Assembly (NCBI GenBank): GCA_046726415.1
Contig: JBKPAK010000220.1
Span: 1-19,109 of the forward strand
Source of the DNA: Candidatus Methylomirabilota bacterium
Lineage (GTDB): Bacteria > Methylomirabilota > Methylomirabilia > Rokubacteriales > CSP1-6
Length of the DNA stretch: 19,109 bases
Direction of reading: 5' to 3'
Made by a program: the position numbers and the translations under genes. Of the stretch, positions 1-18,444 are shown piece after piece (positions within the stretch are counted from its first letter, which is position 1; each line of letters begins with the position of its first letter). The notes beneath the pieces were generated by a model. The model did not search any database. It was not told where the DNA came from and saw only the letters and a list, made by a program, of their open reading frames with translations.

Positions 1-323
1 TCGAGAGGCACTCGGCCCCAGCGCTCCCGCCGGGCGGCGACGAGCGCGGCATGAATCGCGAACTTGTACGCCCACGTGGTGAACCGGCTCTCGCCGCGAA
101 ACTCGTGGAGCCGCTCGAGCAGCGACGCCAGGGCCTCCTGAACGGAATCCTCGGCGAGCTGGTCCACGTCGATGGGTGCGAGCCGCAGGGCATTGCGGTG
201 ACGCGAGAGCGCGTAGCGTGCGGCTCGTAGCAGGTAGGCGCGCAGATCGGACAGGGCCGCGGTCTGGGGCTGACCGTCGGCCTTTAACGCGATCAGCCAC
301 TCCGCGTTGGCGCGTGCCTTCAT
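1..323 (-). CDS. ECF-type RNA polymerase sigma-70 factor, 5' part (runs off the window edge)
   Basis: Not in the ORF track. Manual translation from ATG at 323 gives MKARANAEWLIALK...VDQLAEDSVQEALASLLERLHEFRGESRFTTWAYKFAIHAALVAARRERW, a typical sigma70 region-2 signature (D..QEA...F.G.S.F.TW). Confidence 0.9.
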   Translation of the reverse strand, partial: MKARANAEWLIALKADGQPQTAALSDLRAYLLRAARYALSRHRNALRLAPIDVDQLAEDSVQEALASLLERLHEFRGESRFTTWAYKFAIHAALVAARRERWGRVPL

Positions 324-346
324 CGGCAGAACTTTGGCGACGGCTC

Positions 347-352
347 ATTATA
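347..352 (-). promoter_or_regulatory. Putative -10 box (TATAAT) for the ECF sigma gene
   Basis: Perfect TATAAT on the minus strand 23 nt upstream of the ATG, in GC-rich DNA. No clear -35 box. Confidence 0.5.
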
Positions 353-435
353 GGCACACGCACCGGAGCCCGGGTTTCGTGACCCTCGCGGCCCGAGCGA
401 TCGAGCGCAACGGGTCGCCAAGACGGGCACTTCCG

Positions 436-806
436 ATGCTCTGGAAGAGCCCGTCTGAGGCCCCGCCGAAGACCGACGCGTGGCTGGCGATCGTGGAGAC
501 AGGCCAGGCGCCGGAGAGCGCGGAGCTGGCTGAGGTGGTGGAGCGGCTCCGGCATCCCGACGCTGTCACCCGAGAGGATATCCGCCGTAGGGCGACGGGG
601 GACTTCAGGACGTGGCTGGAGGATTGGAGGAATGGATCGACCATCCGCCACCGCATGATCGATGTCGGATACGAGTTGGTGCCGAACCCTGACGAGAAGA
701 GGGGGGTCGCGAGCAACGCGCGATCTACTCGCGGCGCAAGCTGGCCCGCCAGGAGCGCGTTGCCGCCGCCAGGGAGTACGCGGCGAGGGGGGACTCCGAC
801 AGCTGA
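436..806 (+). pseudogene. Remnant C-terminus of a phage/integrative-element primase-helicase-type protein (frameshifted, 5' part missing)
   Basis: APPKTDAWLAIVETGQAPESAELAEVVERLRHPDAVT...FRTWLEDWRN...IRHRMIDVGYELVPNPD, then a frameshift at the G6 run (701-706) continues as QRAIYSRRKLARQERVAAAREYAAR to TGA at 804-806. Resembles, from memory, the C-terminal region of DUF5906-type primase/helicases. Confidence 0.55.
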
Positions 807-3725: not shown

Positions 3726-4424
3726 TCATGCCAGGTCGAACACCAGGACCTCGGCAGCCTGCTGACCGACGACAGCGAGGCGGTCCTCGCCGCTTACCGC
3801 CGCGCCATCGCCCTCTCCCAGCGCAGTCCCGTTGACCGAGACTGACCCGCGGGCGACGTGGATCCACGCGTGATGTGACCGGCGCAGCGAGAGCTCCCGT
3901 CGCTCCCCCGGACCGATGAACGCGACCCGGAGGTCCACGTCCTGCTGGACGTCGAGGCTGCCGTCCCGTCCGCCCTTCGAGGCGAGGAGAACGAACGCCC
4001 GGCTGGCCAGCTCCCGATCGAAGGTCTGCTGGCCATACGCCGGCTTCAGACCCCGCGCCTCCGGCACGATCCAGATTTGCAGGAAGTGCACCGGGTCGAC
4101 CTTCGAGTGGTTCTGCTCAGTGTGAGTTACGCCCGTGCCGGCCCGCATCAACTGGATCTCGCCCGGGCGGATGACGCCGCCACCGCCCGAGCTGTCCTGG
4201 TGCTCGAGCGCGCCCTCGAGCACGTAGGACAGGATCTCCATGTCCTGATGGCCGTGGCGCCCGAACCCGGCACCGGCCTTCACGCGGTCGTCGTTGATCA
4301 CCCGCAAGGTCCGAAATCCCATGTGCGCCGGATCGTGGTACTCGCCGAACGAGAAGGTGTGCCGGCTGTCCAGCCAGCCCCAGTCGGTGCGTCCACGCGC
4401 CTCGGCTGGTCGAATCTGCATCAT
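3726..4424 (-). CDS. Pirin family protein (YhhW-like, quercetin 2,3-dioxygenase-type bicupin)
   Basis: GWLDSRHTFSFGEYHDPAHMGFRTLRVINDDRV...GFGRHGHQDMEILSYVLEGALEHQDS...MRAGTGVTHTEQN...FLQIWI. The metal ligands H-x-H and H-x-E are present. Confidence 0.95.
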   Translation of the reverse strand: MMQIRPAEARGRTDWGWLDSRHTFSFGEYHDPAHMGFRTLRVINDDRVKAGAGFGRHGHQDMEILSYVLEGALEHQDSSGGGGVIRPGEIQLMRAGTGVTHTEQNHSKVDPVHFLQIWIVPEARGLKPAYGQQTFDRELASRAFVLLASKGGRDGSLDVQQDVDLRVAFIGPGERRELSLRRSHHAWIHVARGSVSVNGTALGEGDGAAVSGEDRLAVVGQQAAEVLVFDLA

Positions 4425-4439
4425 CGCGTCATCTCCCCC

Positions 4440-6088
4440 TCACGCCTCCTTGAGAAACTCGTGGACGCACTGGACCGCCATCGATCCCTCGCCCACGGCT
4501 GAGGCGACCCGCTTGACAGAGCCCGACCGCACATCGCCGGCCGCGAAGACTCCAGGGCGGCTCGTTTCCAGCAAGAACGGATGCCGACGGCTGGTCCAGT
4601 GGGGGGACCCGGCCAGTGCTGCGCCGGTCCGGATGAATCCCCGGAGTCCCGTTCGATCTCCGGGGGCAGCCAGTCGGTCCGGGGCACGGCGCCGATGAAG
4701 CTGAACACCGCGGGCGTTTCCACGGTGCGCTCCTGCCCGGTCTTCGCGTTGACGATGTCGACCGCGCGGAGGTGATCCGTGCCGCTCATGCGGCGGATCG
4801 TCGTGTTGGGGAGGAGTTCGATGTTGGGCGTTTGCGCGATTCGATGGGCCAGATAGCTGGACATGCTCTCGGACAGATCATCGCCGCGGATCAGGAGGAG
4901 CACCGTGCGGGCATGCTGGGCCAGGAAGACCGCAGCCTGGCCGGCAGAGTTGCCGCCGCCCACCAGCACCACCTGCGTCCCGCGGAACGTCTGACCCTCG
5001 GCAGGCGTGGCCGCGTAGTAGACTCCCTTCCCCTCGAACTGCTCGCACCCCTCCACGGCCAGCCGGCGGTAGTCGGCTCCGGTGGCGATCAGGAGACACT
5101 TCGTGGTGACGATCTCGCCGCTGTCCAGCCGCACGACGGAATAGGCGTTCTCCCAACCGACGTGGACGACCTGAGTGGGGACAGACAGTCGTGCACCGAA
5201 CTTGTTGGCCTGCAGGATGGCACGGTCTGCCAGCTCGCTCCCCGTCACGCCAGTGGGGAAGCCGAGATAGTTTTCGATCCGCATGCTGCTACCCGCCTGC
5301 CCCCCGGGCGCGGTGCGCTCCAGCAACACCGTTCGCAGTCCCTCGGAGGCAGCGTAGACCGCCGCGGCCAGCCCAGCCGGGCCGGCGCCCACGACGACGA
5401 GGTCATAGACCGTCCGATCCAGCGGCTGATGGATGCCGATCGCATCGGCCAGCTGGCGGGTTGAAGGATTTCGCAGGAGCAACAAGTCACCGAGGGCGAC
5501 CACCGGCGTGTCGGCTTCGGTCATGCCAAAGTGTTTGAGGAGCCGGTCAACCTCCGGGTCGGTTTCCACGTCCATCCAGGTGAACAGCACACGGTTCTTG
5601 GCCAGAAAATCGCGGACGCGAAACGTATCGGTGGAGTAGCGGGATCCGATCACCCGCAGGCCAGTGAAGTCCGGTGACTCGCGCAAGAGCTGGCGGCGGG
5701 CGATGAAGGCTTGGAGGATGATGTCACTCAGGGCCGGGCACTGGTTGAGGGCCCCCCGCAGCGTTTCCCCCGATACCTCATCCACCTCGCAATCGCCTCG
5801 GGCCACGGCGCTGATCACAGACGCGCGGCCGGTGAGGTGGGAGACGTCGCCGGTGAACTCGCCCTTCCCATGGAGGGTGACCGTTTTCGGCGTGTCACCG
5901 GAGTGATCGAGAATCTCAATCTCGCCTGACCTGACGACGAAGAACTTGAAGTCGCGATCGCCGATCGAGATGAGGGTCTGGCCGTCGCGATAGGTCCTTG
6001 GGGTGGCGGCGGTGCAACGGCTGAATTCCCTGATCTGGGCGTCGTCGAGCGTCGGGAAGGCGACGGAATGAAGCGTGTGTTCGGCCAT
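4440..6088 (-). CDS. Cyclic-nucleotide-binding domain / thioredoxin-reductase-like FAD-dependent oxidoreductase, with a 1-nt frameshift near 4640
   Basis: N-terminal cNMP-binding domain (FFVVRSGEIEI...GEFTGD), FAD motif GAGPAGLAAA, NAD(P)H motif GGGNSAGQAA. The conserved tail GFIRTG...LETSRPGVFAAGDVRSGSVKRVASAVGEGSMAV...KEA* lies in another frame and ends at TGA 4440-4442. Confidence 0.9.
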
Positions 6089-10001: not shown

Positions 10002-13000
10002 TTATGGCCGCTCGATGGGTTTGGTGAACTCCCTCAGAAGCCAACCCGTGGTGGCTGCTCCCTGAGAGGAATCAGGCGCCCTGACCTCGACCCACTTGCC
10101 CCTGACGCCGAGCTGGACAACAACTTCGTTCGGATGGATCGCGCGAATTGGAGGCGACTGGCCATGGGGCCGGTGCCGCAGCGTCGTCGGTTTGACGGTG
10201 ACAACGGGGACAGGCTCGCCGTGGGCCGCCTGGCCGGCTTGTTCGGCCAGAGGGCTGGGCCCGAGTTGGCGGAGCCTGGCGTTGCGCGTGTCGGCAACCA
10301 CGAACAATGCCCCGCGGGTCACGGTGACGGCTTGGGGCTGGTTGAGCTCGGTCTGGTCGGCGTAGCGGCCGTCCCCGTTGAAGCCACCCTGGGGCGTGCC
10401 GTTGGCGACGAGGCCGCCCAGGTCGACCACGTGGCCGGAGGCGGGCACATAGGCCCGGACGAGGTCATTGGTGGTGTCGGTAAAGACCACGTTGCCATTG
10501 AGGCCAATGGACAGGCCCCTGGGCTGGTTGACCTGGACGGATGTGCCGGGGAGCAGCAGTCCCGTGTTGGGGTCGGTGTTGCCGTTGTAGCCGCTCGCCC
10601 CGGTCCCGACGACGATCGTCGCCTGTCCTGTGGTGAGGTCGATCTGGACGAGGTAGTCGGGGTCATTCGAGGTGGCGTAGAGGTTACCGGCGATGTCGCC
10701 GACCACTGCCCAGAGGAGGCCAAGGCCCCCGGCGCCGCGCTGGCAGCACTCGGTGGTGATGGTGCCGTCGGGGAGCACGCCACGGATGCCCCGGCGACCG
10801 TCGGCGATCCAGAGGTGGCCGCTCGGGTCGACCCACACGCCGTAGGGACCGCTGAGGGCGGCGGCGGTGGCCGGCCCGCCGTCCCCGCAGTCCCCGGGCG
10901 TTGCTCCACGCGGTGGGCGCACGAGACGCTGGCCGGGGAGTAGCGGACGAGGGTGCCGCGGAGGCTGGGGGAGGAGTTCCGGCGCCGGGACACTCCGCCG
11001 GGGATCAACCCGAACGGCGGCGGTAGCGCTGCAGCTCGCGCCGGTACCGGCGACGGTGGTGATGCGGCCCGAGGGATCGATTCGACGGACGCGGTGGAGG
11101 ACCGGGTCGGCCAGGTACAGCGACCCGTCGAGGCCGACGGCTAGGCCTGTAGGTGCTCCGAGCAGAGCTTGGGCGGCCGGGCCGCCATCCCCGCAGGCCT
11201 GGGTGGGGCTGGGACAGTGCTGGCCCGGGTTCCCGGCAATCACCTGCGGGGAGCCGTCGCCCACCACCAGCCGGAGCGTTCCGTCGTCGAGAGCGACGTA
11301 GTAGCCGCGTCCCGTGAGCGTGGTGGCCCAGGTGGGCGGGGTGGCCGGCACCACGGCCAGGGGTGAGCCGATGGAGGTGGCGTCGAAGAGGGTCGAGGTG
11401 GGGGTGGGGCAGGCCCCCAGGCCCGCGGCTGAGCAGGGAGCGGGGATGAGCGGCGCTTCGGCCGGGTCCGGCAGGAGATGGTTATCACAGCCGAAGGGGG
11501 GGATCGGGTCTTTGCCGTCCGGGCAGACGGTCACGTCATTCAGCGACACTCCCGTCAGGTCGGTCGTGGCGAAGGGGACGGGCCCGAATGCCTCCCCGGA
11601 GCCGAGGGCCAGCGGCCAGGCCCATCGGGGCTGCGAGCCCGGGACGTTGGCGCAGGAGCCATTCGAGAGATCCCCGCAGTAGAGCCAGGCACCAAGCAGG
11701 TTGACGCCCGGGAGGGTGGCGGACGAGAACACGGCCCCGAGCAGGTAGGCATCGGAGAAGCTGGCTCCGTCAAGGGTCGATCCGGTGAAGTTGCAGCCGA
11801 TGCACTGAGCTCTGTCGAACTTGGCCCCGGTCAGGTCGGCCCCGGCCAGATCGAAGCCTCCCTGATTGGCGTCGCCGGCGAGCACGGCATCGACGAAGTC
11901 GGCGGCCTGCAGGTTTCTGGCGCTGTCGAAGGCCCGGCCGTCGCCGTAGATGTGGGCGCCATTGAACACGGCGTTGGGGGCCTTCACCGAGTTGAAGTCG
12001 GTGCCCACGGCCAGGGCCCGGTTGAAGGCTGCCCTCGAGAGGTCGGCGCTCTGGAAGCTGGCGCCGCTCACATCCGCCCCGACGAAGACGGCGCCCACCA
12101 GGCTGGTCGTCGAGCCGGCGAAGCTGGCCCCCGGCACATTGCTGTGGGCGGCCAGGCGAGCGTTGAGAAAGGACGCCCCCGTCGCCTCGGCATTGCGGAA
12201 CGTGGCCCCGGAGAGATCGGCCAGCTCGAAGCTCGTCTGCTGGAGCGAGGCACCGTCGAAGTTGGTGCGCGAGAAGTCGGCGGGGAACCCGACGAAGCTG
12301 ACCAGGGCCAAGTTGATGCCGTGCAGGTCCGCACCGGCGAGCCCGGCGCGGTTGCCCGCGTCGGCCACGAAACGGGCGTTGGCGAAGTTGACGGTGACCT
12401 GGTAGGTGCGCGCAAGCAAGGTGAGCAGGTCGAGCGGCGCGGTACTGAACGAGAGCAGCGGGCTGGTCTCGCAGCCAGGGTCCGGCTTGATTGGGGCCAG
12501 GCGGGTGCTGCGGAGGTCCGTGTTCTCGAACTTGGTGCACCGTCCGTCGAAGGGTCCTATCCGGACGCCGGAGAAGCTGGGGGGCATGCTGTGCTGCAGC
12601 CCGACCAATTGGGCGCCGCGGAGGTCGGCGCGGTCGAACACGGTGCGATCGACCACCGTCTGGTCCAGGGTCGCGCCGCTCAAGACAGCGCCGGTCAGGT
12701 CGGCACCGGTCAGGTCGGCGCCGCTCAAGACCGAGCCGATCAGGTCGGCGCCGTTCAGGTCCCAGCCGTTGAAGTTTCCGGTCAGGGTGGCGCCGCCCAG
12801 GCTGGCGCCGCTGAGGTCGCTCTGATACGCGACGTTCGGGTTCAACGGCGTAGGTGTGAAGCTGATTTTCTCCGGCAGCACGCAGGCCCGGCAGCCGTTG
12901 TAGGTGGCCAGAAGCTTCTCTGGGTCTACGATGTCGACCTCCGTCGGGACAAAGGAAGGATCACCCGGGAACAGCACTGGAGCGGGGTCGCCGACCCCGG

Positions 13001-14219
13001 CGTTCTTGGCTCCCCACGCGGACACGCGGCCGGCGGCGTCCTTGAGCAAGACGGCGGCGCCAGGCGCGACGGTAATCGAGTGGGGGTTGGTCATGACTTC
13101 CCGCCCACCTTCGGCAATCCCAGAACACCCGGCAGCTTCGCTCCAGGTGGAACCGGCTGGCAGCACCACCACGTTGGCGCTCGAACTGTTGGGCTCCAGC
13201 GGTCGGGCAAAGACCGCGCCCCCGAATGGAGGAAGGGGAAGCGGTGGGGGATCCTGGCGCAGGCAGATGGGCCCGGTTGGCACGCTGACCGCAACCGAGT
13301 CCGGGCCGCAGCGGGGGATGTCGATGTTGTTGAAGTTGCAGCCGGAGCCGCTGCTGGTATCGGCGGTGATGAAGTTCTGATTGGCGTCGCTGCCGTCGAG
13401 GTTCGCCCGCCCAATCGTTCCGCCGCTCGAGGGGAACCAGCTGTTAGCCCAGTAAATGTGCTCGTAATCGAGCGCCACGCCAAACGGGTTGATCGCGCCG
13501 GTGATGAAGTTCGAGTTGACATTGCTGCCGTCGAGGGTGGCCCGCCCGATCGTGCCGTCCGAAAGGTTGGTCCAGTAGATGTGCTGGTAGTCGACCGCCA
13601 ACCCGGAAACCGCGACGCTTAGTGGGTTCCGGTCGTCGTTCGGGACGGTGATGAAGCTCTGGTTGACGCCGCTGCTGTTCAGGTTCGCCCGCCCAATCGT
13701 GCTGTCGCCGACGTTGGACCAGTAGATGTGCTGGCCGTCGACCGCCAGCCCCGCGGGACCGTTCGCGCCAGCGATGAAGCTCGGGTTCGCGTCGCTGCCG
13801 TCGAGGTTCGCCCGCCCGATCGTGCCCACCGCAGGGATGGCCCTGTAGATGTGCTGGCCGTCGACCGCCAGCACCGCGTAACCGTTCACGCCGGTGATGA
13901 TGAAGCTCGGGTTCGCGTCGCTGCCGTCGAGGTTCGCCCGCCCGATCGTGCCGTCCCCGGTCCAGTAGATGTACTGGCGATCGACCGCCACGTTTATTAC
14001 GGCAAGGACGTTGTTGCCAACCTTGATGAAGCTCTGGTTGACGTTGGCGGGGTTCCCGTCGGTCGTGCCGCGTCCGATCGTTCCGGATTGGGTGTTGGGC
14101 CAGTAGACGAAGGCGGATCCGGATGGCTGGGCGAGCGCGGGCGGCACTGCGACGAGGCTGGCGACCAGCATCGCGGTCAGGAGAGACACCGGGGACGGGT
14201 ACCGGGCGACGGTCGTCAC
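10002..14219 (-). CDS. Large secreted multi-repeat protein (1405 aa): signal peptide, YWTD/LY-like propeller, pentapeptide repeats, NHL repeats, SH3b-like C-terminus
   Basis: Signal ...LVAVPPALA-Q. Six repeats of LAVD.QHIYW....TIGRANLDGS..N.SFI. Many A(D/S)L(S/T)G pentapeptides. NHL units GDGGPA..A.L..P.G. C-terminal TTLRHRP...IRAIHPNEVV...KWVEVR...TGWL. Confidence 0.9.
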   Translation of the reverse strand: MTTVARYPSPVSLLTAMLVASLVAVPPALAQPSGSAFVYWPNTQSGTIGRGTTDGNPANVNQSFIKVGNNVLAVINVAVDRQYIYWTGDGTIGRANLDGSDANPSFIITGVNGYAVLAVDGQHIYRAIPAVGTIGRANLDGSDANPSFIAGANGPAGLAVDGQHIYWSNVGDSTIGRANLNSSGVNQSFITVPNDDRNPLSVAVSGLAVDYQHIYWTNLSDGTIGRATLDGSNVNSNFITGAINPFGVALDYEHIYWANSWFPSSGGTIGRANLDGSDANQNFITADTSSGSGCNFNNIDIPRCGPDSVAVSVPTGPICLRQDPPPLPLPPFGGAVFARPLEPNSSSANVVVLPAGSTWSEAAGCSGIAEGGREVMTNPHSITVAPGAAVLLKDAAGRVSAWGAKNAGVGDPAPVLFPGDPSFVPTEVDIVDPEKLLATYNGCRACVLPEKISFTPTPLNPNVAYQSDLSGASLGGATLTGNFNGWDLNGADLIGSVLSGADLTGADLTGAVLSGATLDQTVVDRTVFDRADLRGAQLVGLQHSMPPSFSGVRIGPFDGRCTKFENTDLRSTRLAPIKPDPGCETSPLLSFSTAPLDLLTLLARTYQVTVNFANARFVADAGNRAGLAGADLHGINLALVSFVGFPADFSRTNFDGASLQQTSFELADLSGATFRNAEATGASFLNARLAAHSNVPGASFAGSTTSLVGAVFVGADVSGASFQSADLSRAAFNRALAVGTDFNSVKAPNAVFNGAHIYGDGRAFDSARNLQAADFVDAVLAGDANQGGFDLAGADLTGAKFDRAQCIGCNFTGSTLDGASFSDAYLLGAVFSSATLPGVNLLGAWLYCGDLSNGSCANVPGSQPRWAWPLALGSGEAFGPVPFATTDLTGVSLNDVTVCPDGKDPIPPFGCDNHLLPDPAEAPLIPAPCSAAGLGACPTPTSTLFDATSIGSPLAVVPATPPTWATTLTGRGYYVALDDGTLRLVVGDGSPQVIAGNPGQHCPSPTQACGDGGPAAQALLGAPTGLAVGLDGSLYLADPVLHRVRRIDPSGRITTVAGTGASCSATAAVRVDPRRSVPAPELLPQPPRHPRPLLPGQRLVRPPRGATPGDCGDGGPATAAALSGPYGVWVDPSGHLWIADGRRGIRGVLPDGTITTECCQRGAGGLGLLWAVVGDIAGNLYATSNDPDYLVQIDLTTGQATIVVGTGASGYNGNTDPNTGLLLPGTSVQVNQPRGLSIGLNGNVVFTDTTNDLVRAYVPASGHVVDLGGLVANGTPQGGFNGDGRYADQTELNQPQAVTVTRGALFVVADTRNARLRQLGPSPLAEQAGQAAHGEPVPVVTVKPTTLRHRPHGQSPPIRAIHPNEVVVQLGVRGKWVEVRAPDSSQGAATTGWLLREFTKPIERP
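13285..14111 (-). repeat. Intragenic tandem repeats (~126 bp, six blades) of the YWTD-like propeller
   Basis: Identical 54-bp copies at 13773-13826 and 13899-13952, and identical 28-bp copies at 13722-13749 and 13845-13872. Confidence 0.9.
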
Positions 14220-14241: not shown

Positions 14242-17200
14242 TCACCGCCGCCGGCGCCGTGCTCGGCTCGGCGTGAGCGGATCGAAGCGGCTCAGGGAGG
14301 GTTCGGCCACGCCCAGGAGGGGGTCGATGTGGGGCTGGCTGGTGCTGCTATCGAGCAGGGCCGTGTAGTTCGCCGCATAGATGCTGCGCCAGTAGTCGAC
14401 GGCGATGTGCGGGATGTTGGTGCCCGGGCTGTTGGTGGCGAGCGGCGCGCCGCTGGGGGTGTAGACGTCGATCCGGTAATCCGCCGGCTGGGTTCCGTCG
14501 CCCTGATATGAAAGCACGTAGATCTGGCCCGAGCCGTCGACTGCGACATCCAGGTAGGTGGCAGGTCTGGGGAGCGTGAGTGTGAAGGCGGCCGGCGACC
14601 CGGTGCCGAAGTAACGGACAGGGTTACCGTCGAGGTCGAATGCGGCCAGCTGCGAGGCGCCAGCTTCCAGCACGATGACGATGCCGGGATTGGTGACAGC
14701 CACCGCGGTCGGGGACGAGAGGAGGCCGATCTCGGTGCCGGGCCCGGCCACGTAGGCCGCCAGCGGAGGCTGAGGGGTGTTGGCCGGCAGCACGTGCCCC
14801 AGCCGGCCGCTATCGGTGTGGATGGCCACGACGCGCCCGGAGGAGTGCAGGGCGGCGGCGCTCACAGGGAGGGGGAAGAAGCCCAGCGAGGTGGTGGGAG
14901 TGGGATCCCAGCTCAGGGCGCCGGTGGTGGGGTCGATGGCCAGGCGCCGGATGTTGTAGCCGGGTGTGGTCTCGTCGGGCTCGAGCAGCACGTGGTTGGC
15001 GATGTCGTCGGCCCCGACGAACGAATCGAACAACAGGAACGGGCGGCGGGTATAGCCCTGTGTCGTCGCGTCACCGAGGGTGATCGTGGCGCCCTTCTCA
15101 GCGATGGGGACGCCCCGCAGCCAATACTTATCGTCCTGCTTCCAGACGATGCCGGCCACACCCAGCCCGGTGGCGATGGCGACGCCGGTCACCTCCTGGA
15201 CGCCGCTGTTGGCGATCGTGCCGGTGTCGGTGACGGAGTCGGACCAGGTGTAGCCGCCGGCCGTGGGACTGTAGGTCGTGGTGTCAGCCCGCCGGAACAC
15301 GGTGGAAGCGGTGATGGGGGCCGGCAACTCGGTGATTGCGAAGGCCACGCTCGAGGGCGGGTTGGCCGGATCGTTGTTGGCCAGCTGGGTTGAGACACCG
15401 GTGCCGACCTGGTTGCCGTTGGCGTCCAAGACCACGATCGACCAGGTGATCGTCCGGCCGCCGAAGGGGGCGGTCAGGTGCAGCACGATAGGGTCGGAGT
15501 CGATGTGGCCGCCGGCATTGAGGGGGCCGGTTCTCGGGGTCAGCGCCACGGCCCCATCGATCTTGGCTTCGATCCGCCACGAGCGGGCCGTCACCGGCCA
15601 CGTCGCCGCGTTGTGGGCAAGATCCCGCGACACCGTCACCGTCGCCGCGTACTGCAACGACACCTCGTTCTCGATCACCCACGGCGACGTCACCGTCTCC
15701 CCGATCGCCTCCGCCAACGTCGCCGCATCACCCACCGCCGCAGCCACGGCCAGGACCTGACCGATCAACGGGATCGCCTCGACGATCTTGGAGCCCGCCT
15801 GTCCCGCAAGGATGGCGGCGGCGATTGGCGTCCAGATCGGGTTGCCGAAGGCTTCGAAGATGGCCTTCGGGATGATCGTCCCGAAGTTGACGAGGATGCT
15901 CCAGATGTTGGCTGTGCTGCCGCCGTTGTTGTTGATGTCCTCGGCGGTGGCTGCACCGGCCGCCACCAACACGGCGACGCTCTCGATGACGGAGAGGATC
16001 CTCGAGCCGATCAGCGCTTTCAACGCCGCATCCAGCGCCTGGCGGTTCTGGATGGCTGTCCGGATACCCGCCCAGGTGCTGGCGACGTCCATGTCGCAGA
16101 AGAGGGCGAAGGCGGTGACGCCGATGGTCAGGACGCCGGTCATCAGCGAGGCGAGGAGGACCTCGTCCTGGGGGGCGATGGCGCCGCTGGGGTAGGCGTC
16201 GGCGGGGAAGTATTGGCGCCAGCCACCGTCGACGGCGTTGCTGCCGAGCCCGCAGTACAGGATCCGGGCGCTGGCCGCCTCGGACGGGAAGTTCAAGGTG
16301 ACGTCGATGGTGTTGGTGTCCCAGATCGGGATGCCGAGGATGGTCCAGATCTGGGGGAGCAGGCCGAGGGAGTGGGCGTGGCGGGTGTTGGGGAACGTCG
16401 CGTTGGGGTCGAGCGACAAGTTGGTGCCGTCGGCTTTGAGGTATTGGACGTACACCGACACCCAGCGGACGTAGTTGTTGTACAGCTTGAGGGGGAGCTG
16501 CCCGCCGTTGAGGCCCCCGTTGACGAAGGTCTTGGTGCCATAGAACAGCCCGGGGTGCTTGACCTGCACGCTGAGCGTCGCTTGCGGTCCGCCCGGCGGG
16601 ACGTAGACGGTGGGGGTGGGAACGACACCTTCGGGCTGATGCCAGGTGGCAGTGTCGCTGGTGTCGTGCAGCTGGTCGAGGGGCTGATCGATGACCTTGC
16701 CGAGGCTGCCGGTGTCACGCACCCCGTGAATGCCCGCCACGAAGGCGTTGCGGGCGGTCTCGGTGAACGTCGTGTCGGTCGTGTTCAACTTGACGGTCGT
16801 CAAGGCGACGGTCTGCGAACCGACGGTGATCTGGCTCGGGTTGCCGGCGGCGTCGACCGCCGGCACCACCGTGGCGTAGTCCTGCCCCGCCTGCTGCATC
16901 TGGCCGATGTAGCTGCCGAGCGCGCTGACCTCAGGCGTCTGGCTCAGCAGCGACTTGGTGGCCGCCACCGCGGTAGGCGCGATGGTCGCCACGTTGGGGT
17001 GCAGCATGGTCAGAGCAATCGCCGTCTGATAGGGGTCCCCGATCGTCTCCAGCTGCACCACGTGCTCCGGGGAGCTGATTTGGGAGGGCAGGAGGCCCAA
17101 CGCCCTCAGGCGCGCAGGCGAGCCCAGCACGCTTCCGAGCGAGCCGGTGAAGCGATGCGCCGCCTGGGCCAGGATCCGCGTGGCCTTGGGCGGGACGCGC

Positions 17201-17637
17201 CACAGTTGCGACACCAAGACTTCGTTCTGCCCCCTGCGCCCGTACACCGAGACCACCATGCCCCGGTCCACCGAGAAGGGGACAGCCGAGACGTAGTGGG
17301 TGAGAGCGGACAGGTTCATGACGCCCCACAGGCCGCCTTCGGCCTTGAGCGCTGCTCGTGACACCTCGGTGTGTGGGACCAGTGGGAACCTGGCCCCGTT
17401 GGCGACCAGCACCAGATCCGAGACGCCCGTGGCTGTTGCGAGGGCGAAGTGGAGGGCGGAGGAGCTGCGCACGCGCGTCGGTGCGGCAACGGCCGGACTC
17501 GACTGCAGCTGCATAGCCATGGCCGCGGCTGAGCCCAGGCCGGCCTTGAGCATCCAGCGGCGGCTCACCGGCGTGGCCCCGAGCTCTCTCAGCAGTGATC
17601 GGCTCTCGCTGTCCAGGTGCGTGTGCTCGTCGCTCAT
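14242..17637 (-). CDS. Tat-signal hypothetical protein (1131 aa) with central hydrophobic helices and C-terminal NHL-like beta-propeller
   Basis: SD AGGAG before the ATG. Twin-arginine motif SRRWMLK followed by an h-region and PAVA-A. C-terminal blades LSSPTAVAVT..G.VIVLE and YLDVAVDGSGQIYVLSY, HIAVDYWRSIYAANY. The stop lies 22 nt from the next start. Confidence 0.88.
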   Translation of the reverse strand: MSDEHTHLDSESRSLLRELGATPVSRRWMLKAGLGSAAAMAMQLQSSPAVAAPTRVRSSSALHFALATATGVSDLVLVANGARFPLVPHTEVSRAALKAEGGLWGVMNLSALTHYVSAVPFSVDRGMVVSVYGRRGQNEVLVSQLWRVPPKATRILAQAAHRFTGSLGSVLGSPARLRALGLLPSQISSPEHVVQLETIGDPYQTAIALTMLHPNVATIAPTAVAATKSLLSQTPEVSALGSYIGQMQQAGQDYATVVPAVDAAGNPSQITVGSQTVALTTVKLNTTDTTFTETARNAFVAGIHGVRDTGSLGKVIDQPLDQLHDTSDTATWHQPEGVVPTPTVYVPPGGPQATLSVQVKHPGLFYGTKTFVNGGLNGGQLPLKLYNNYVRWVSVYVQYLKADGTNLSLDPNATFPNTRHAHSLGLLPQIWTILGIPIWDTNTIDVTLNFPSEAASARILYCGLGSNAVDGGWRQYFPADAYPSGAIAPQDEVLLASLMTGVLTIGVTAFALFCDMDVASTWAGIRTAIQNRQALDAALKALIGSRILSVIESVAVLVAAGAATAEDINNNGGSTANIWSILVNFGTIIPKAIFEAFGNPIWTPIAAAILAGQAGSKIVEAIPLIGQVLAVAAAVGDAATLAEAIGETVTSPWVIENEVSLQYAATVTVSRDLAHNAATWPVTARSWRIEAKIDGAVALTPRTGPLNAGGHIDSDPIVLHLTAPFGGRTITWSIVVLDANGNQVGTGVSTQLANNDPANPPSSVAFAITELPAPITASTVFRRADTTTYSPTAGGYTWSDSVTDTGTIANSGVQEVTGVAIATGLGVAGIVWKQDDKYWLRGVPIAEKGATITLGDATTQGYTRRPFLLFDSFVGADDIANHVLLEPDETTPGYNIRRLAIDPTTGALSWDPTPTTSLGFFPLPVSAAALHSSGRVVAIHTDSGRLGHVLPANTPQPPLAAYVAGPGTEIGLLSSPTAVAVTNPGIVIVLEAGASQLAAFDLDGNPVRYFGTGSPAAFTLTLPRPATYLDVAVDGSGQIYVLSYQGDGTQPADYRIDVYTPSGAPLATNSPGTNIPHIAVDYWRSIYAANYTALLDSSTSQPHIDPLLGVAEPSLSRFDPLTPSRARRRRR

Positions 17638-17821
17638 CAGTCTTTCTCCTGGCGAAGCCTCATGCAGGGCCGGTGATGAGAGAAGTCGGCTGGTGCCTTG
17701 TTATCTCGTAGGGTCGACGACCGGCGCTTGCTCCGCTCTCCATGCCCGAAGGTGAGGTTAGATATGTCTTCTGGATCTTCTGTGCGTTCCCCTTCGGGAG
17801 CGCCGGAGACCGGTCGAGATG

Positions 17822-17908
17822 AGCGGGTGCCGTGCCACCCCCGCGATTCTGCGTAACTCCTCGATTCGCCGCTCGTTGCATGGTCCCGGCTGTGCAGAAG
17901 GTTGCACA
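17822..17908 (-). promoter_or_regulatory. Putative sigma54 promoter with IHF site and upstream activator palindrome
   Basis: TGGCACG-GCAC-CCGCT (17837-17822, GG-N10-GC). AATCGA-GGAG-TTA (17866-17854, one mismatch to WATCAANNNNTTR). TGTGCA-N6-TGCACA (17891-17908). Confidence 0.62.
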
Positions 17909-18210
17909 CGGTGAGCAAGCCGCCTGCGACCCGGGCGGGCGTTCCCGGAACGTCGCAGACTGTGTTACCGATGCGTTCGCTGGAGTGGGGTGACGGTGGC
18001 GCGGGCCGGCGCCCTTGGCGTACTGTCGACCACTAGAATCGCTGGCGCTGCGCTTTTTCGGCGGCTTCGATTTCAGCACTGGCGCCGGGCGCCCGGGGCC
18101 AGAAGGCCCAGGCGCCGCTGGCCTACCTCGCCTGCCACACCGGCCAATTGCATCCCGGGACAATAGCAGGCCCGCACCAATCTCCGCAAGGCGGTTTGGG
18201 TCCTTCGAGG

Positions 18211-18260
18211 GACATGCGGCTCTGGAGCAGGCCGAGGCGGAGATGAAGGCGCTCGGCTGA
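18211..18260 (+). pseudogene. Tiny remnant resembling the C-terminus of adenylate-cyclase/AAA-ATPase/TPR proteins
   Basis: Reads DMRLW / LEQAEAEMKALG* across a small deletion. From memory this resembles the (E/D)M.FWLEQAEAE(L/M)..LG ending common in Rokubacteria-type proteins. Very short. Confidence 0.4.
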
Positions 18261-18444
18261 TCTCTGCCCGCGCTGCCAGGTTGAGAACCGCGGTTCTCAG
18301 ACCACTTCGAGCTCGGTCAGGGCGAAACGAGGCGAGCGCGGGACCCGCGCACGGAGCCTGTGGCTTCTAGGTGAGATCACCACCCGAGCCGGCCCGGGAA
18401 CCACGGAGGGACCCGAGAGCCGCTATCGCGAGGCGCTTGCGATC

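Follow-up and report, generated by a model that had tools for sequence, protein, structure and literature searches.

Why would a large protein exported by twin-arginine translocation (Tat) carry a block of strongly apolar helices between its beta-rich domains? This question is raised by gene A of the 19,109-nucleotide stretch of DNA from a Candidatus Methylomirabilota bacterium analysed here (the window), the product of which, P0001, is a protein of 1131 residues. The first-pass annotation compared the block with the translocation and pore-forming domains of toxins. In the reading preferred here, to which a probability of about one half is given, the block is a soluble, acidic helical insert with the apolar helices as its core, exported in the folded state by Tat and acting together with protein B, the product of the adjacent gene. 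Taken together, the evidence favours a soluble, pre-folded domain over an ordinary polytopic membrane anchor. The features on which the argument depends are the following.

14242..17637, minus strand: gene A, encoding P0001 (1131 residues; open reading frame and translation), which holds the helical block
15700..16170, minus strand: helical block of about ten helices (residues 490-646), predicted to form an insert in sandwich 1 (AlphaFold2 run 2, conservation, hydrophobicity, charge)
16099..16170, minus strand: helix H1, residues 490-513, the sole segment of near-transmembrane hydrophobicity, with acidic residues on its flanks
15736..15795, minus strand: helix H8, residues 615-634 (..IVEAIPLIGQVLAVAAA..)
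15709..15732, minus strand: G-D-A-A-T-L-A-E motif, residues 636-643, the best-conserved stretch of the block, located just before the strand S-P-W-V-I-E-N-E

Composition and conservation of the helical block

Positions 15695-16165 (minus strand) of the window encode residues 491-648 of P0001, and the four peptides quoted in the first-pass annotation are located at residues 494-514, 547-565, 578-594 and 601-642. Compared with the rest of P0001, the block is rich in Ala (20.9% vs 11.7%) and Ile (12.0% vs 4.4%) and poor in Pro (2.5% vs 7.8%); His and Tyr do not occur in it. Its mean Kyte-Doolittle hydrophobicity is 0.88, compared with 0.13 for the whole protein. The 158-residue window of peak hydrophobicity starts at residue 493, and its maximum was reached by only 9 of 2000 residue shuffles. 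An Ala/Ile-rich hydrophobic helical block at 15695..16165 with beta structure on both sides, as first described, is confirmed by the composition, the shuffles and both AlphaFold2 runs discussed below.

A word-seeded search, in which 8000 candidates were scored, found 204 relatives of P0001 at E<=1e-3 (family A). Among the matches listed (120 of 204), the length is 835-1319 residues and the identity 50-95%; none of these carries a precomputed Pfam domain, and those with a name are "hypothetical". Three alignments were used: A1 (39 relatives), A2 (41 block sequences from genome loci) and A3 (78 sequences including distant relatives).

In A2 the mean column identity of the block is 53%, and among 1.84 billion proteins the A2 profile retrieved only 94 cluster representatives at E<=1e-3. 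With such conservation throughout family A, the block is not a chance feature. T500 of H1 is invariant in 78/78 sequences and belongs to a Thr/Gly ladder (T500, G501, T504, G506, T508). In H8, P623 and G626 are invariant, distant relatives included; in the G-D-A-A-T-L-A-E motif D637, T640, L641 and A642 are invariant in A1. Conservation peaks in the apolar helices H1, H6, H8 and H9 (0.76 for H1, 0.76 for H6, 0.81 for H9) and has its minimum in the amphipathic H2 (0.52) and H3 (0.31). As far as the aligned sequences go, this distribution is that of a globular core which carries helices on its surface.

Predicted fold of the block

AlphaFold2 was applied to the full-length protein with 39 sequences (run 1) and to residues 57-785 with the 78 sequences of A3 (run 2). 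In both runs residues 490-646 are all-helical, with beta strands on either side. The helices of run 2 span residues 490-513, 518-529, 532-543, 550-559, 565-570, 579-582, 585-595, 602-612, 615-634 and 638-645. For residues 57-785 this run gave a mean predicted local distance difference test score (pLDDT) of 87 and a predicted template-modelling score (pTM) of 0.83, and the pLDDT of the block is about 78-91; in run 1 it is below 50 for residues 502-639. Within the otherwise good model of run 2, the region of the G-D-A-A-T-L-A-E motif (model residues 583-588) also has a pLDDT below 50. The confidence of run 2 indicates that the modelled part has a defined, compact multi-domain fold. Structure prediction, which the first-pass annotation had proposed as a check, thus returned a confident all-helical domain in run 2.

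The position of this domain is given by the VIA alignments of the beta-sandwich that surrounds it.

16171..16602, minus strand: immunoglobulin-like beta-sandwich 1, residues 346-489, with its last strand at about 654-662, after the helical block (VIA rows and AlphaFold2 secondary structure)

In these alignments, model residues 296/309..606 (residues 352/365..662 of the protein) are matched over about 80-98 aligned residues, and the helices are jumped over. In the predicted fold the block is thus an insertion that precedes the last strand of sandwich 1.

Hydrophobicity and charge

The ability of the helices to enter a membrane was estimated as a summed 19-residue insertion free energy, with a cut-off of 3 kcal/mol. 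The value for H1 is -1.5 to +2.7 kcal/mol in 41/41 sequences. Only 4/41 sequences contain another segment that does not exceed 3 kcal/mol, so on this simple summed scale the family lacks the two or more segments of transmembrane level that a polytopic anchor would have. On the Eisenberg scale H1 has a mean hydrophobicity of 0.56 and a moment of 0.13; the remaining helices are less hydrophobic and more amphipathic.

Residues 478-662 contain on average about 7 Lys + Arg vs about 19 Asp + Glu. The loop 514-549 has 2.9 basic vs 5.3 acidic residues, and acidic residues exceed basic ones in every loop except residues 585-612 (2.1 basic vs 1.6 acidic). No Lys/Arg-rich loops occur in the block, and the charge pattern is not that of the positive-inside rule.

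Distant relatives (1069-1236 residues) have the same whole architecture, and in them a Tat or Sec signal is followed by a lipobox Cys. The part of the block left out by profile matches is 68-85 residues long in these proteins vs 118 in the profile. The equivalent of H1 contains Asn and Pro, the block is less hydrophobic, and in one protein no block window reaches a KD19 (Kyte-Doolittle, 19 residues) of at least 1.5.

Since there is one near-membrane helix only, the block is acidic without Lys/Arg-rich loops and the distant relatives are lipoproteins, an ordinary membrane anchor is unlikely. The polytopic inner-membrane anchor, which the first-pass annotation had named as the outcome that would count against its own reading, is improbable on the same grounds (second segment in 4/41 sequences, no positive-inside loops).

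Predicted export by the Tat pathway

17482..17637, minus strand: Tat signal peptide, residues 1-52, comprising a helical n-region, S-R-R-W-M-L-K at 25-31, an h-region, and A-V-A before the likely cleavage site

The Tat consensus is S/T-R-R-x-F-L-K, and cleavage sites follow the A-x-A rule. In P0001 the motif S-R-R-W-M-L-K is followed by GLGSAAAMAM and then by A-V-A, so the sequence combines a Tat motif with an h-region and a site for signal peptidase. R26 and R27 do not vary among the aligned relatives (39/39), W28 and K31 are nearly invariant, and the twin-arginine motif is present in 130/152 full-length relatives. All intact A copies in the fetched loci, tandem copies included, carry TPVGRRW.LKAGLGSAAA. 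The Pfam TAT_signal model gave 16.3 bits on P0001, under its 22.7 cut-off, and was matched by 5/39 relatives at E<=0.1. A TatC gene is present elsewhere in the same genome (248 bits). The earlier description of P0001 as a Tat substrate is thus borne out by its sequence, given the invariant twin arginine and the TatC gene.

The median number of cysteines per protein is 2 in family A vs 20 in family B. The cysteine-poor composition of family A fits folding in the cytoplasm before export by Tat, and the cysteine-rich composition of family B fits oxidative folding after export by Sec. Five classes of Tat substrates are described in a 2026 review, none of them, in the excerpted text, with a polytopic anchor in the middle of the protein (PMC13673990).

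The n-region of about 25 residues before the twin arginine is conserved, predicted helical, and has the consensus ..L.E-L-W.T-P-V-G-R-R-W. Signals to which dedicated Tat chaperones bind typically have a long, conserved n-region; no Tat chaperone gene was seen in the window.

One sub-group (P0014-P0018, P0020, P0024, P0025, P0060 and P0073; 65-67% identity to P0001) has lost the h- and c-regions: E-R-R-V-F-H-F-A-L-G leads straight into the first beta strand in some of them, and others begin immediately ahead of it. These signal-less proteins may be cytoplasmic, may be co-exported with a partner, or may be decaying copies.

Partner protein B

10002..14219, minus strand: gene B, encoding P0002 (1405 residues), which starts 22 nt downstream of gene A (Pfam Pentapeptide 5.9e-33, TEN_NHL 2.2e-21, Ldl_recept_b 1.1e-8)

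P0002 has a Sec-type signal and two propellers, one of the YWTD/LDL-receptor type and one of the NHL type; it further contains pentapeptide repeats (about 440 residues), linkers rich in cysteine and a small tail domain at the C-terminus. Many cysteines are invariant in family B. Gene pairing was followed in 45 loci (44 fetched and the window): in 35 of them gene A has a B relative at a distance of no more than 8 kb, nearly always directly downstream. A genes also occur in tandem arrays of two to three that precede one B gene. A prediction of the complex between residues 57-785 of A and 319-580 of B scored 0.00 and was made with no control pairs, so it counts neither way on binding. Short B forms of other genomes start at a conserved segment, C-L-R-Q..P-P-A-P-P..G-G-A-V-F-A-R-P, after the signal peptide.

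P0244 (2282 residues), the sole longer match, was considered as an A-B fusion and rejected, being a frameshift read-through artefact near A residue 912: it consists of A residues 16-912, an out-of-frame stretch rich in Arg, Pro and His, and then the signal peptide of the next gene. No fused A-B form was therefore found among the matches. The search for other architectures gave 16 shorter matches, which resemble fragments, and P0201 (4685 residues, six weak stretches), which has TbpB domains and was set aside as unrelated.

Searches for pore-forming and translocation domains

None of the sequence searches connected the block with a known pore former. Against Pfam at E<=10, where HMMER filters drop most matches above about 0.1, the 41 block sequences gave 18 families, each matched by 1/41 sequences, and none was Colicin, Diphtheria_T, Bcl-2 or Endotoxin_N. 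PF01024 and PF02764 were matched neither by P0001 (E<=1) nor by the 41 block sequences (E<=10), and a search of PDB sequences with the block profile gave 0 matches at E<=10.

The fold searches used the 729-residue, multi-domain model of run 2. With this query Foldseek gave 0 matches at E<=0.001, and the VIA top 50 consists entirely of beta-sandwich rows, with no bundle of the colicin, T-domain or Bcl-2 type listed. A fold search of BFVD returned nothing meaningful. In Protein Atlas the best score of the block was 0.80, for unnamed clusters, and the Colicin PF01024 cluster stood at rank 15 with 0.77; both values lie within the range of shuffled proteins. Weak Foldseek rows to cholesterol-dependent cytolysins were not upheld by VIA, where they fall outside the top 50 of 996 chains on re-scoring.

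The longest run without Asp, Glu, Lys or Arg has a median of 22 residues (range 22-35, 41 sequences), and in P0001 uncharged runs of 22, 23, 21 and 16 residues lie at four separate sites. A contiguous hydrophobic hairpin of the colicin type is not seen in the block: the ..AIPLIGQVL.. segment, in which the first-pass annotation saw a hairpin recalling pore formers, consists of a helix of 20 residues and a short one after it, in place of a long uncharged hairpin. Kinship or likeness of fold to colicin or the T domain found no counterpart in Pfam, in PDB sequences or in Foldseek at E<=0.001, and the comparison with pore formers that had been suggested as a check came back empty at this threshold, within lists filled by beta-sandwiches for a multi-domain query. 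The specific analogy with toxins is unsupported rather than refuted.

Proposed explanation

The block is a family-wide, predicted all-alpha domain of about 155 residues, the core of which would be made of H1 (490-513), H8 (615-634) and the conserved short helices, with the variable amphipathic helices (518-543) outside it. The host protein, of about 120 kDa and almost cysteine-free, would most likely fold in the cytoplasm with the apolar helices buried. P0001 would then cross the membrane by Tat as a water-soluble class I substrate, and the distant relatives as class II lipoproteins; in a diderm host a class I substrate would reach the periplasm first. By this routing a single helix resembling a Sec stop-transfer segment could be kept off the Sec translocon. 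Outside the cytoplasm, protein A could act with the co-transcribed, disulfide-rich pentapeptide/NHL protein B, and the helical insert may serve as the module of the A-B unit for docking or for binding of an apolar ligand or a membrane surface. The idea of the first-pass annotation that apolar helices are hidden inside a folded exported protein fits the model of run 2, the acidic charge and the conserved Tat routing. The analysis shows the anatomy, the conservation, the signal, the gene pairing and how confident the fold prediction is; burial of the helices, the reason for the Tat routing and the function are inferred from these.

Alternative explanations

Several observations weigh against a soluble insert of this kind. 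H1 is uncharged over 22-24 residues, with a KD19 of about 2.0 and an insertion energy near 0 in several members, which is enough for a membrane span. The burial of H1 and H8 is inferred from model confidence scores and sequence patterns. The block is confident in run 2 and below 50 pLDDT in run 1, so its fold depends on the alignment used. The signal h-region is missing in 10/152 full-length relatives that keep the block, and the Tat rationale leaves these unexplained. A B gene is missing within 8 kb in 10/45 loci, about six of which are apparently away from contig ends. Finally, apolar helices within an acidic, apparently soluble domain are also what a latent membrane-insertion module could look like.

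The properties of H1 (22-24 uncharged residues, KD19 of about 2.0, -1.5 to +2.7 kcal/mol) speak for a true membrane anchor, in which H1, alone or with other helices, would span the cytoplasmic membrane with large domains on one or both sides. Its ladder of small residues (T500, G501, T504, G506, T508) is of the kind seen in packed transmembrane helices, and the block is unpacked in run 1. However, a second hydrophobic segment occurs in 4/41 sequences only, acidic residues stand on both sides of H1 and Lys/Arg-rich loops are absent. A single span would leave the propeller in the cytoplasm, yet partner B is Sec-exported and disulfide-rich. The distant relatives carry an N-terminal lipid anchor, and their equivalent of H1 contains Asn and Pro; run 2 predicts a compact unit with a pTM of 0.83, and such a topology is absent from the Tat substrate classes in the excerpted text of the review (PMC13673990). 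An anchor is the least probable of the explanations considered. It is also quite improbable that the apolar faces of the block form an assembly interface, being buried by homo-oligomers, by hetero-oligomers of paralogues or by protein B, and not within the monomer. The two to three tandem A genes ahead of one B gene, the conserved A-B pairing and the low confidence of the block in the full-length monomer run are consistent with it, but residues 57-785 give a confident model already as a monomer, and no fused A-B form exists among the matches, P0244 being a frameshift read-through.

A latent membrane-insertion module, the idea of the first-pass annotation, is unlikely. The block would be stored as a soluble "inside-out" bundle, and H1 and H8 would enter a membrane once triggered, for instance by low pH, by a partner or by the membrane of a target. 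A and B together would then make up a secreted system that is membrane-active, toxin-like or lipid-extracting, with binding left to the propellers. Apolar helices in an acidic domain, the conserved Tat export of a pre-folded protein, tandem arrays with up to three A genes, and a patchy, accessory cassette that nevertheless occurs in Actinomycetota, Chloroflexia and Methylococcaceae assemblies are all in line with this; the G-D-A-A-T-L-A-E motif, the best-conserved and yet a low-confidence spot, could be a hinge. Weaker leads are the Colicin cluster of Protein Atlas (rank 15, 0.77) and the cytolysin rows of Foldseek (E 5e-3 to 5e-2). Against these stand 0/41 members matching Pfam families of pore formers or translocation domains at E<=10, 0 PDB sequences found by the block profile, 0 Foldseek matches at E<=0.001 and an Atlas score within the range of shuffled proteins. 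A contiguous uncharged hairpin is absent (median longest run of 22 residues), no immunity-like small gene is conserved beside the cassette in the 45 loci, and the propeller, far from being the most variable domain, is the best conserved. The fullest form of this idea is less likely still: the insert would be a new kind of Tat-exported "inside-out" membrane-insertion module, folded in the cytoplasm so that its apolar helices avoid the Sec translocon, and a switch at the G-D-A-A-T-L-A-E hinge would let them into the membrane of a target or host after export. A and B would be the two components of a membrane-active system, horizontally mobile, present in several copies and not related to any known pore former. 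The soluble insert with an apolar core remains the preferred reading.

Other domains of P0001

16720..17469, minus strand: N-terminal domain, residues 57-306, a beta-sandwich and a six-helix subdomain (pLDDT about 90-98 in both AlphaFold2 runs)
15298..15699, minus strand: beta-sandwich 2, residues 647-780
14353..15297, minus strand: NHL/YWTD-type six-bladed beta-propeller, residues about 781-1095
14242..14352, minus strand: C-terminal tail with the motif E-P-S-L-S-R-F-D-P, then a poly-Arg end in P0001 (pLDDT <50 in AlphaFold2 run 1)

P0001 thus begins with the Tat signal and an N-domain of unmatched fold; two immunoglobulin-like sandwiches follow, the first of them carrying the helical insert, and then the six-bladed NHL propeller. 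The layout drawn by the first-pass annotation (N-domain, helical bundle, propeller) was right in its order, and its analogy with toxin-type translocation found no support in the searches. In the N-domain H114 and H213-P214 are nearly invariant; no row of the top 50 of the VIA searches, made with a multi-domain query, covers residues 57-306.

The propeller is the most conserved domain of P0001, and its six-bladed fold is clear. The family A profile found the NHL domain of Thin (E 2e-5) and TRIM3 (E 7e-5) in the PDB, and the Pfam NHL model is touched weakly by 2/39 family A members (best E 0.064). Propellers took up the match lists of fold searches that used the full-length model, and the whole of P0001 was recognised in Protein Atlas only as NHL.

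In the C-terminal tail V1110, E1112, P1113, S1114, S1116, F1118 and P1120 are invariant. The sequence G-V-A-E-P-S-L-S-R-F-D-P is thus invariant within a low-confidence tail, and in P0001 it is followed by R-A-R-R-R-R-R. The motif may be a closure strand of the propeller or a short docking or sorting motif.

Scans of P0001 with Pfam and NCBIfam gave no family beyond the weak TAT_signal match, and about 780 of its 1131 residues, including the N-domain and the helical insert, had no Pfam, NCBIfam or PDB match in the searches run. Neither protein A nor protein B was matched by PADLOC, and literature searches, which turned up Tat and pore-former reviews, gave no description of family A. Judged by its sequences, family A is uncharacterised and new to annotation, and the helical insert is without recognised relatives.

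Genomic surroundings and distribution

The ATG of gene A is preceded by AGGAGA at a distance of 7 nt. About 800 bp upstream of the gene (17638-18444) contain no open reading frame with a coding-like GC content at third codon positions and no Rfam match; the frames listed there translate to Arg/Pro-rich sequence unlike protein. Rfam gave no match in the whole window. At 3726-6088 (minus strand) a gene for a pirin/quercetinase-like cupin overlaps by 4 nt the end of a gene for a fusion of cyclic-nucleotide-binding and pyridine-nucleotide-disulphide oxidoreductase domains. Genes for a TauD-family dioxygenase, a major facilitator superfamily (MFS) transporter and an AraC-type helix-turn-helix (HTH) protein lie between these and the cassette.

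Besides A and B, only two clusters occur in at least 4/45 loci, each in 6 of them. One is a Gly-rich secreted protein of about 540 residues, present in 6 other loci. The other is a LuxR-family regulator of about 950 residues (an ATPase, repeats and a C-terminal HTH by the appearance of its sequence), found within 8 kb in 6/45 loci, mostly just upstream (L011, L016, L029, L034, L043 and L044).

The same genome contains further copies of the cassette (loci L047-L053). At C326:8835-16032 two tandem A paralogues (63-67% identity) are followed by a B paralogue; one of the A paralogues has an in-frame TGA, and the other is split into two frames. A third A copy, fragmentary and decayed, lies beside the start of a B gene at C16:284-1998. 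Among sampled genomes of the phylum the block was found in 3/201, this genome included, and cassette loci come from assemblies of Solirubrobacterales, Acidimicrobiia, other Actinomycetota, Chloroflexia and Methylococcaceae; one of them, L002, belongs to the cultured Methylotetracoccus oryzae C50C1. The cassette is accessory, patchy in distribution and probably horizontally mobile.

Significance

Family A is large, entirely unannotated and kept as a two-gene cassette with a giant cysteine-rich pentapeptide/NHL protein. This cassette is multiplied in tandem in soil Actinomycetota and scattered in methanotrophs, Chloroflexia and the phylum of the window. If the insert binds lipids or inserts into membranes, it would be a new class of domain for Tat biology and would give one reason for the Tat routing of a cofactor-less protein, namely the hiding of a Sec stop-transfer helix. 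If the insert is merely a structural core, the result would be a useful annotation of a dark family and nothing exceptional. Family A is a well-defined dark family, and why its Tat routing is retained is a testable question.

Comparison with known systems

The pore-forming domain of colicins (PF01024) and the T domain of diphtheria toxin (PF02764) resemble the block in being soluble helical domains that hide apolar helices between other domains of an exported protein. Colicin has a ten-helix bundle that encloses a contiguous hairpin of about 35-40 uncharged residues, whereas the two long apolar helices of the block are about 100 residues apart and form no contiguous hairpin. The T domain is acidic; colicin pore domains are basic, unlike the acidic block. 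No sequence match to the block and no listed fold match (for the multi-domain query) was found for either. Cholesterol-dependent cytolysins (perfringolysin O, intermedilysin) align weakly with the P0001 model in Foldseek at E 5e-3 to 5e-2 with a probability of 0.2-0.6, over 126-157 columns with a root-mean-square deviation of 11-16 A.

With Tat substrates of classes I and II, family A shares a motif like S-R-R-x-F-L-K, an h-region, an A-x-A or lipobox site, a cysteine-poor composition and a TatC gene in the genome. It differs in its helical n-region of 25 residues before the twin arginine, longer than usual, in a TAT_signal score under the cut-off, and in that no cofactor-binding family was recognised in P0001 by Pfam and NCBIfam.

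The propeller can be compared with the sensor domain of PknD (1rwi) and the NHL domains of Brat, TRIM proteins and teneurins, to which its identity is 8-17%; the N-domain and the helical insert of family A are both absent from these proteins. P0001 is best described as a previously unannotated variant of the secreted propeller/immunoglobulin-like multi-domain proteins.

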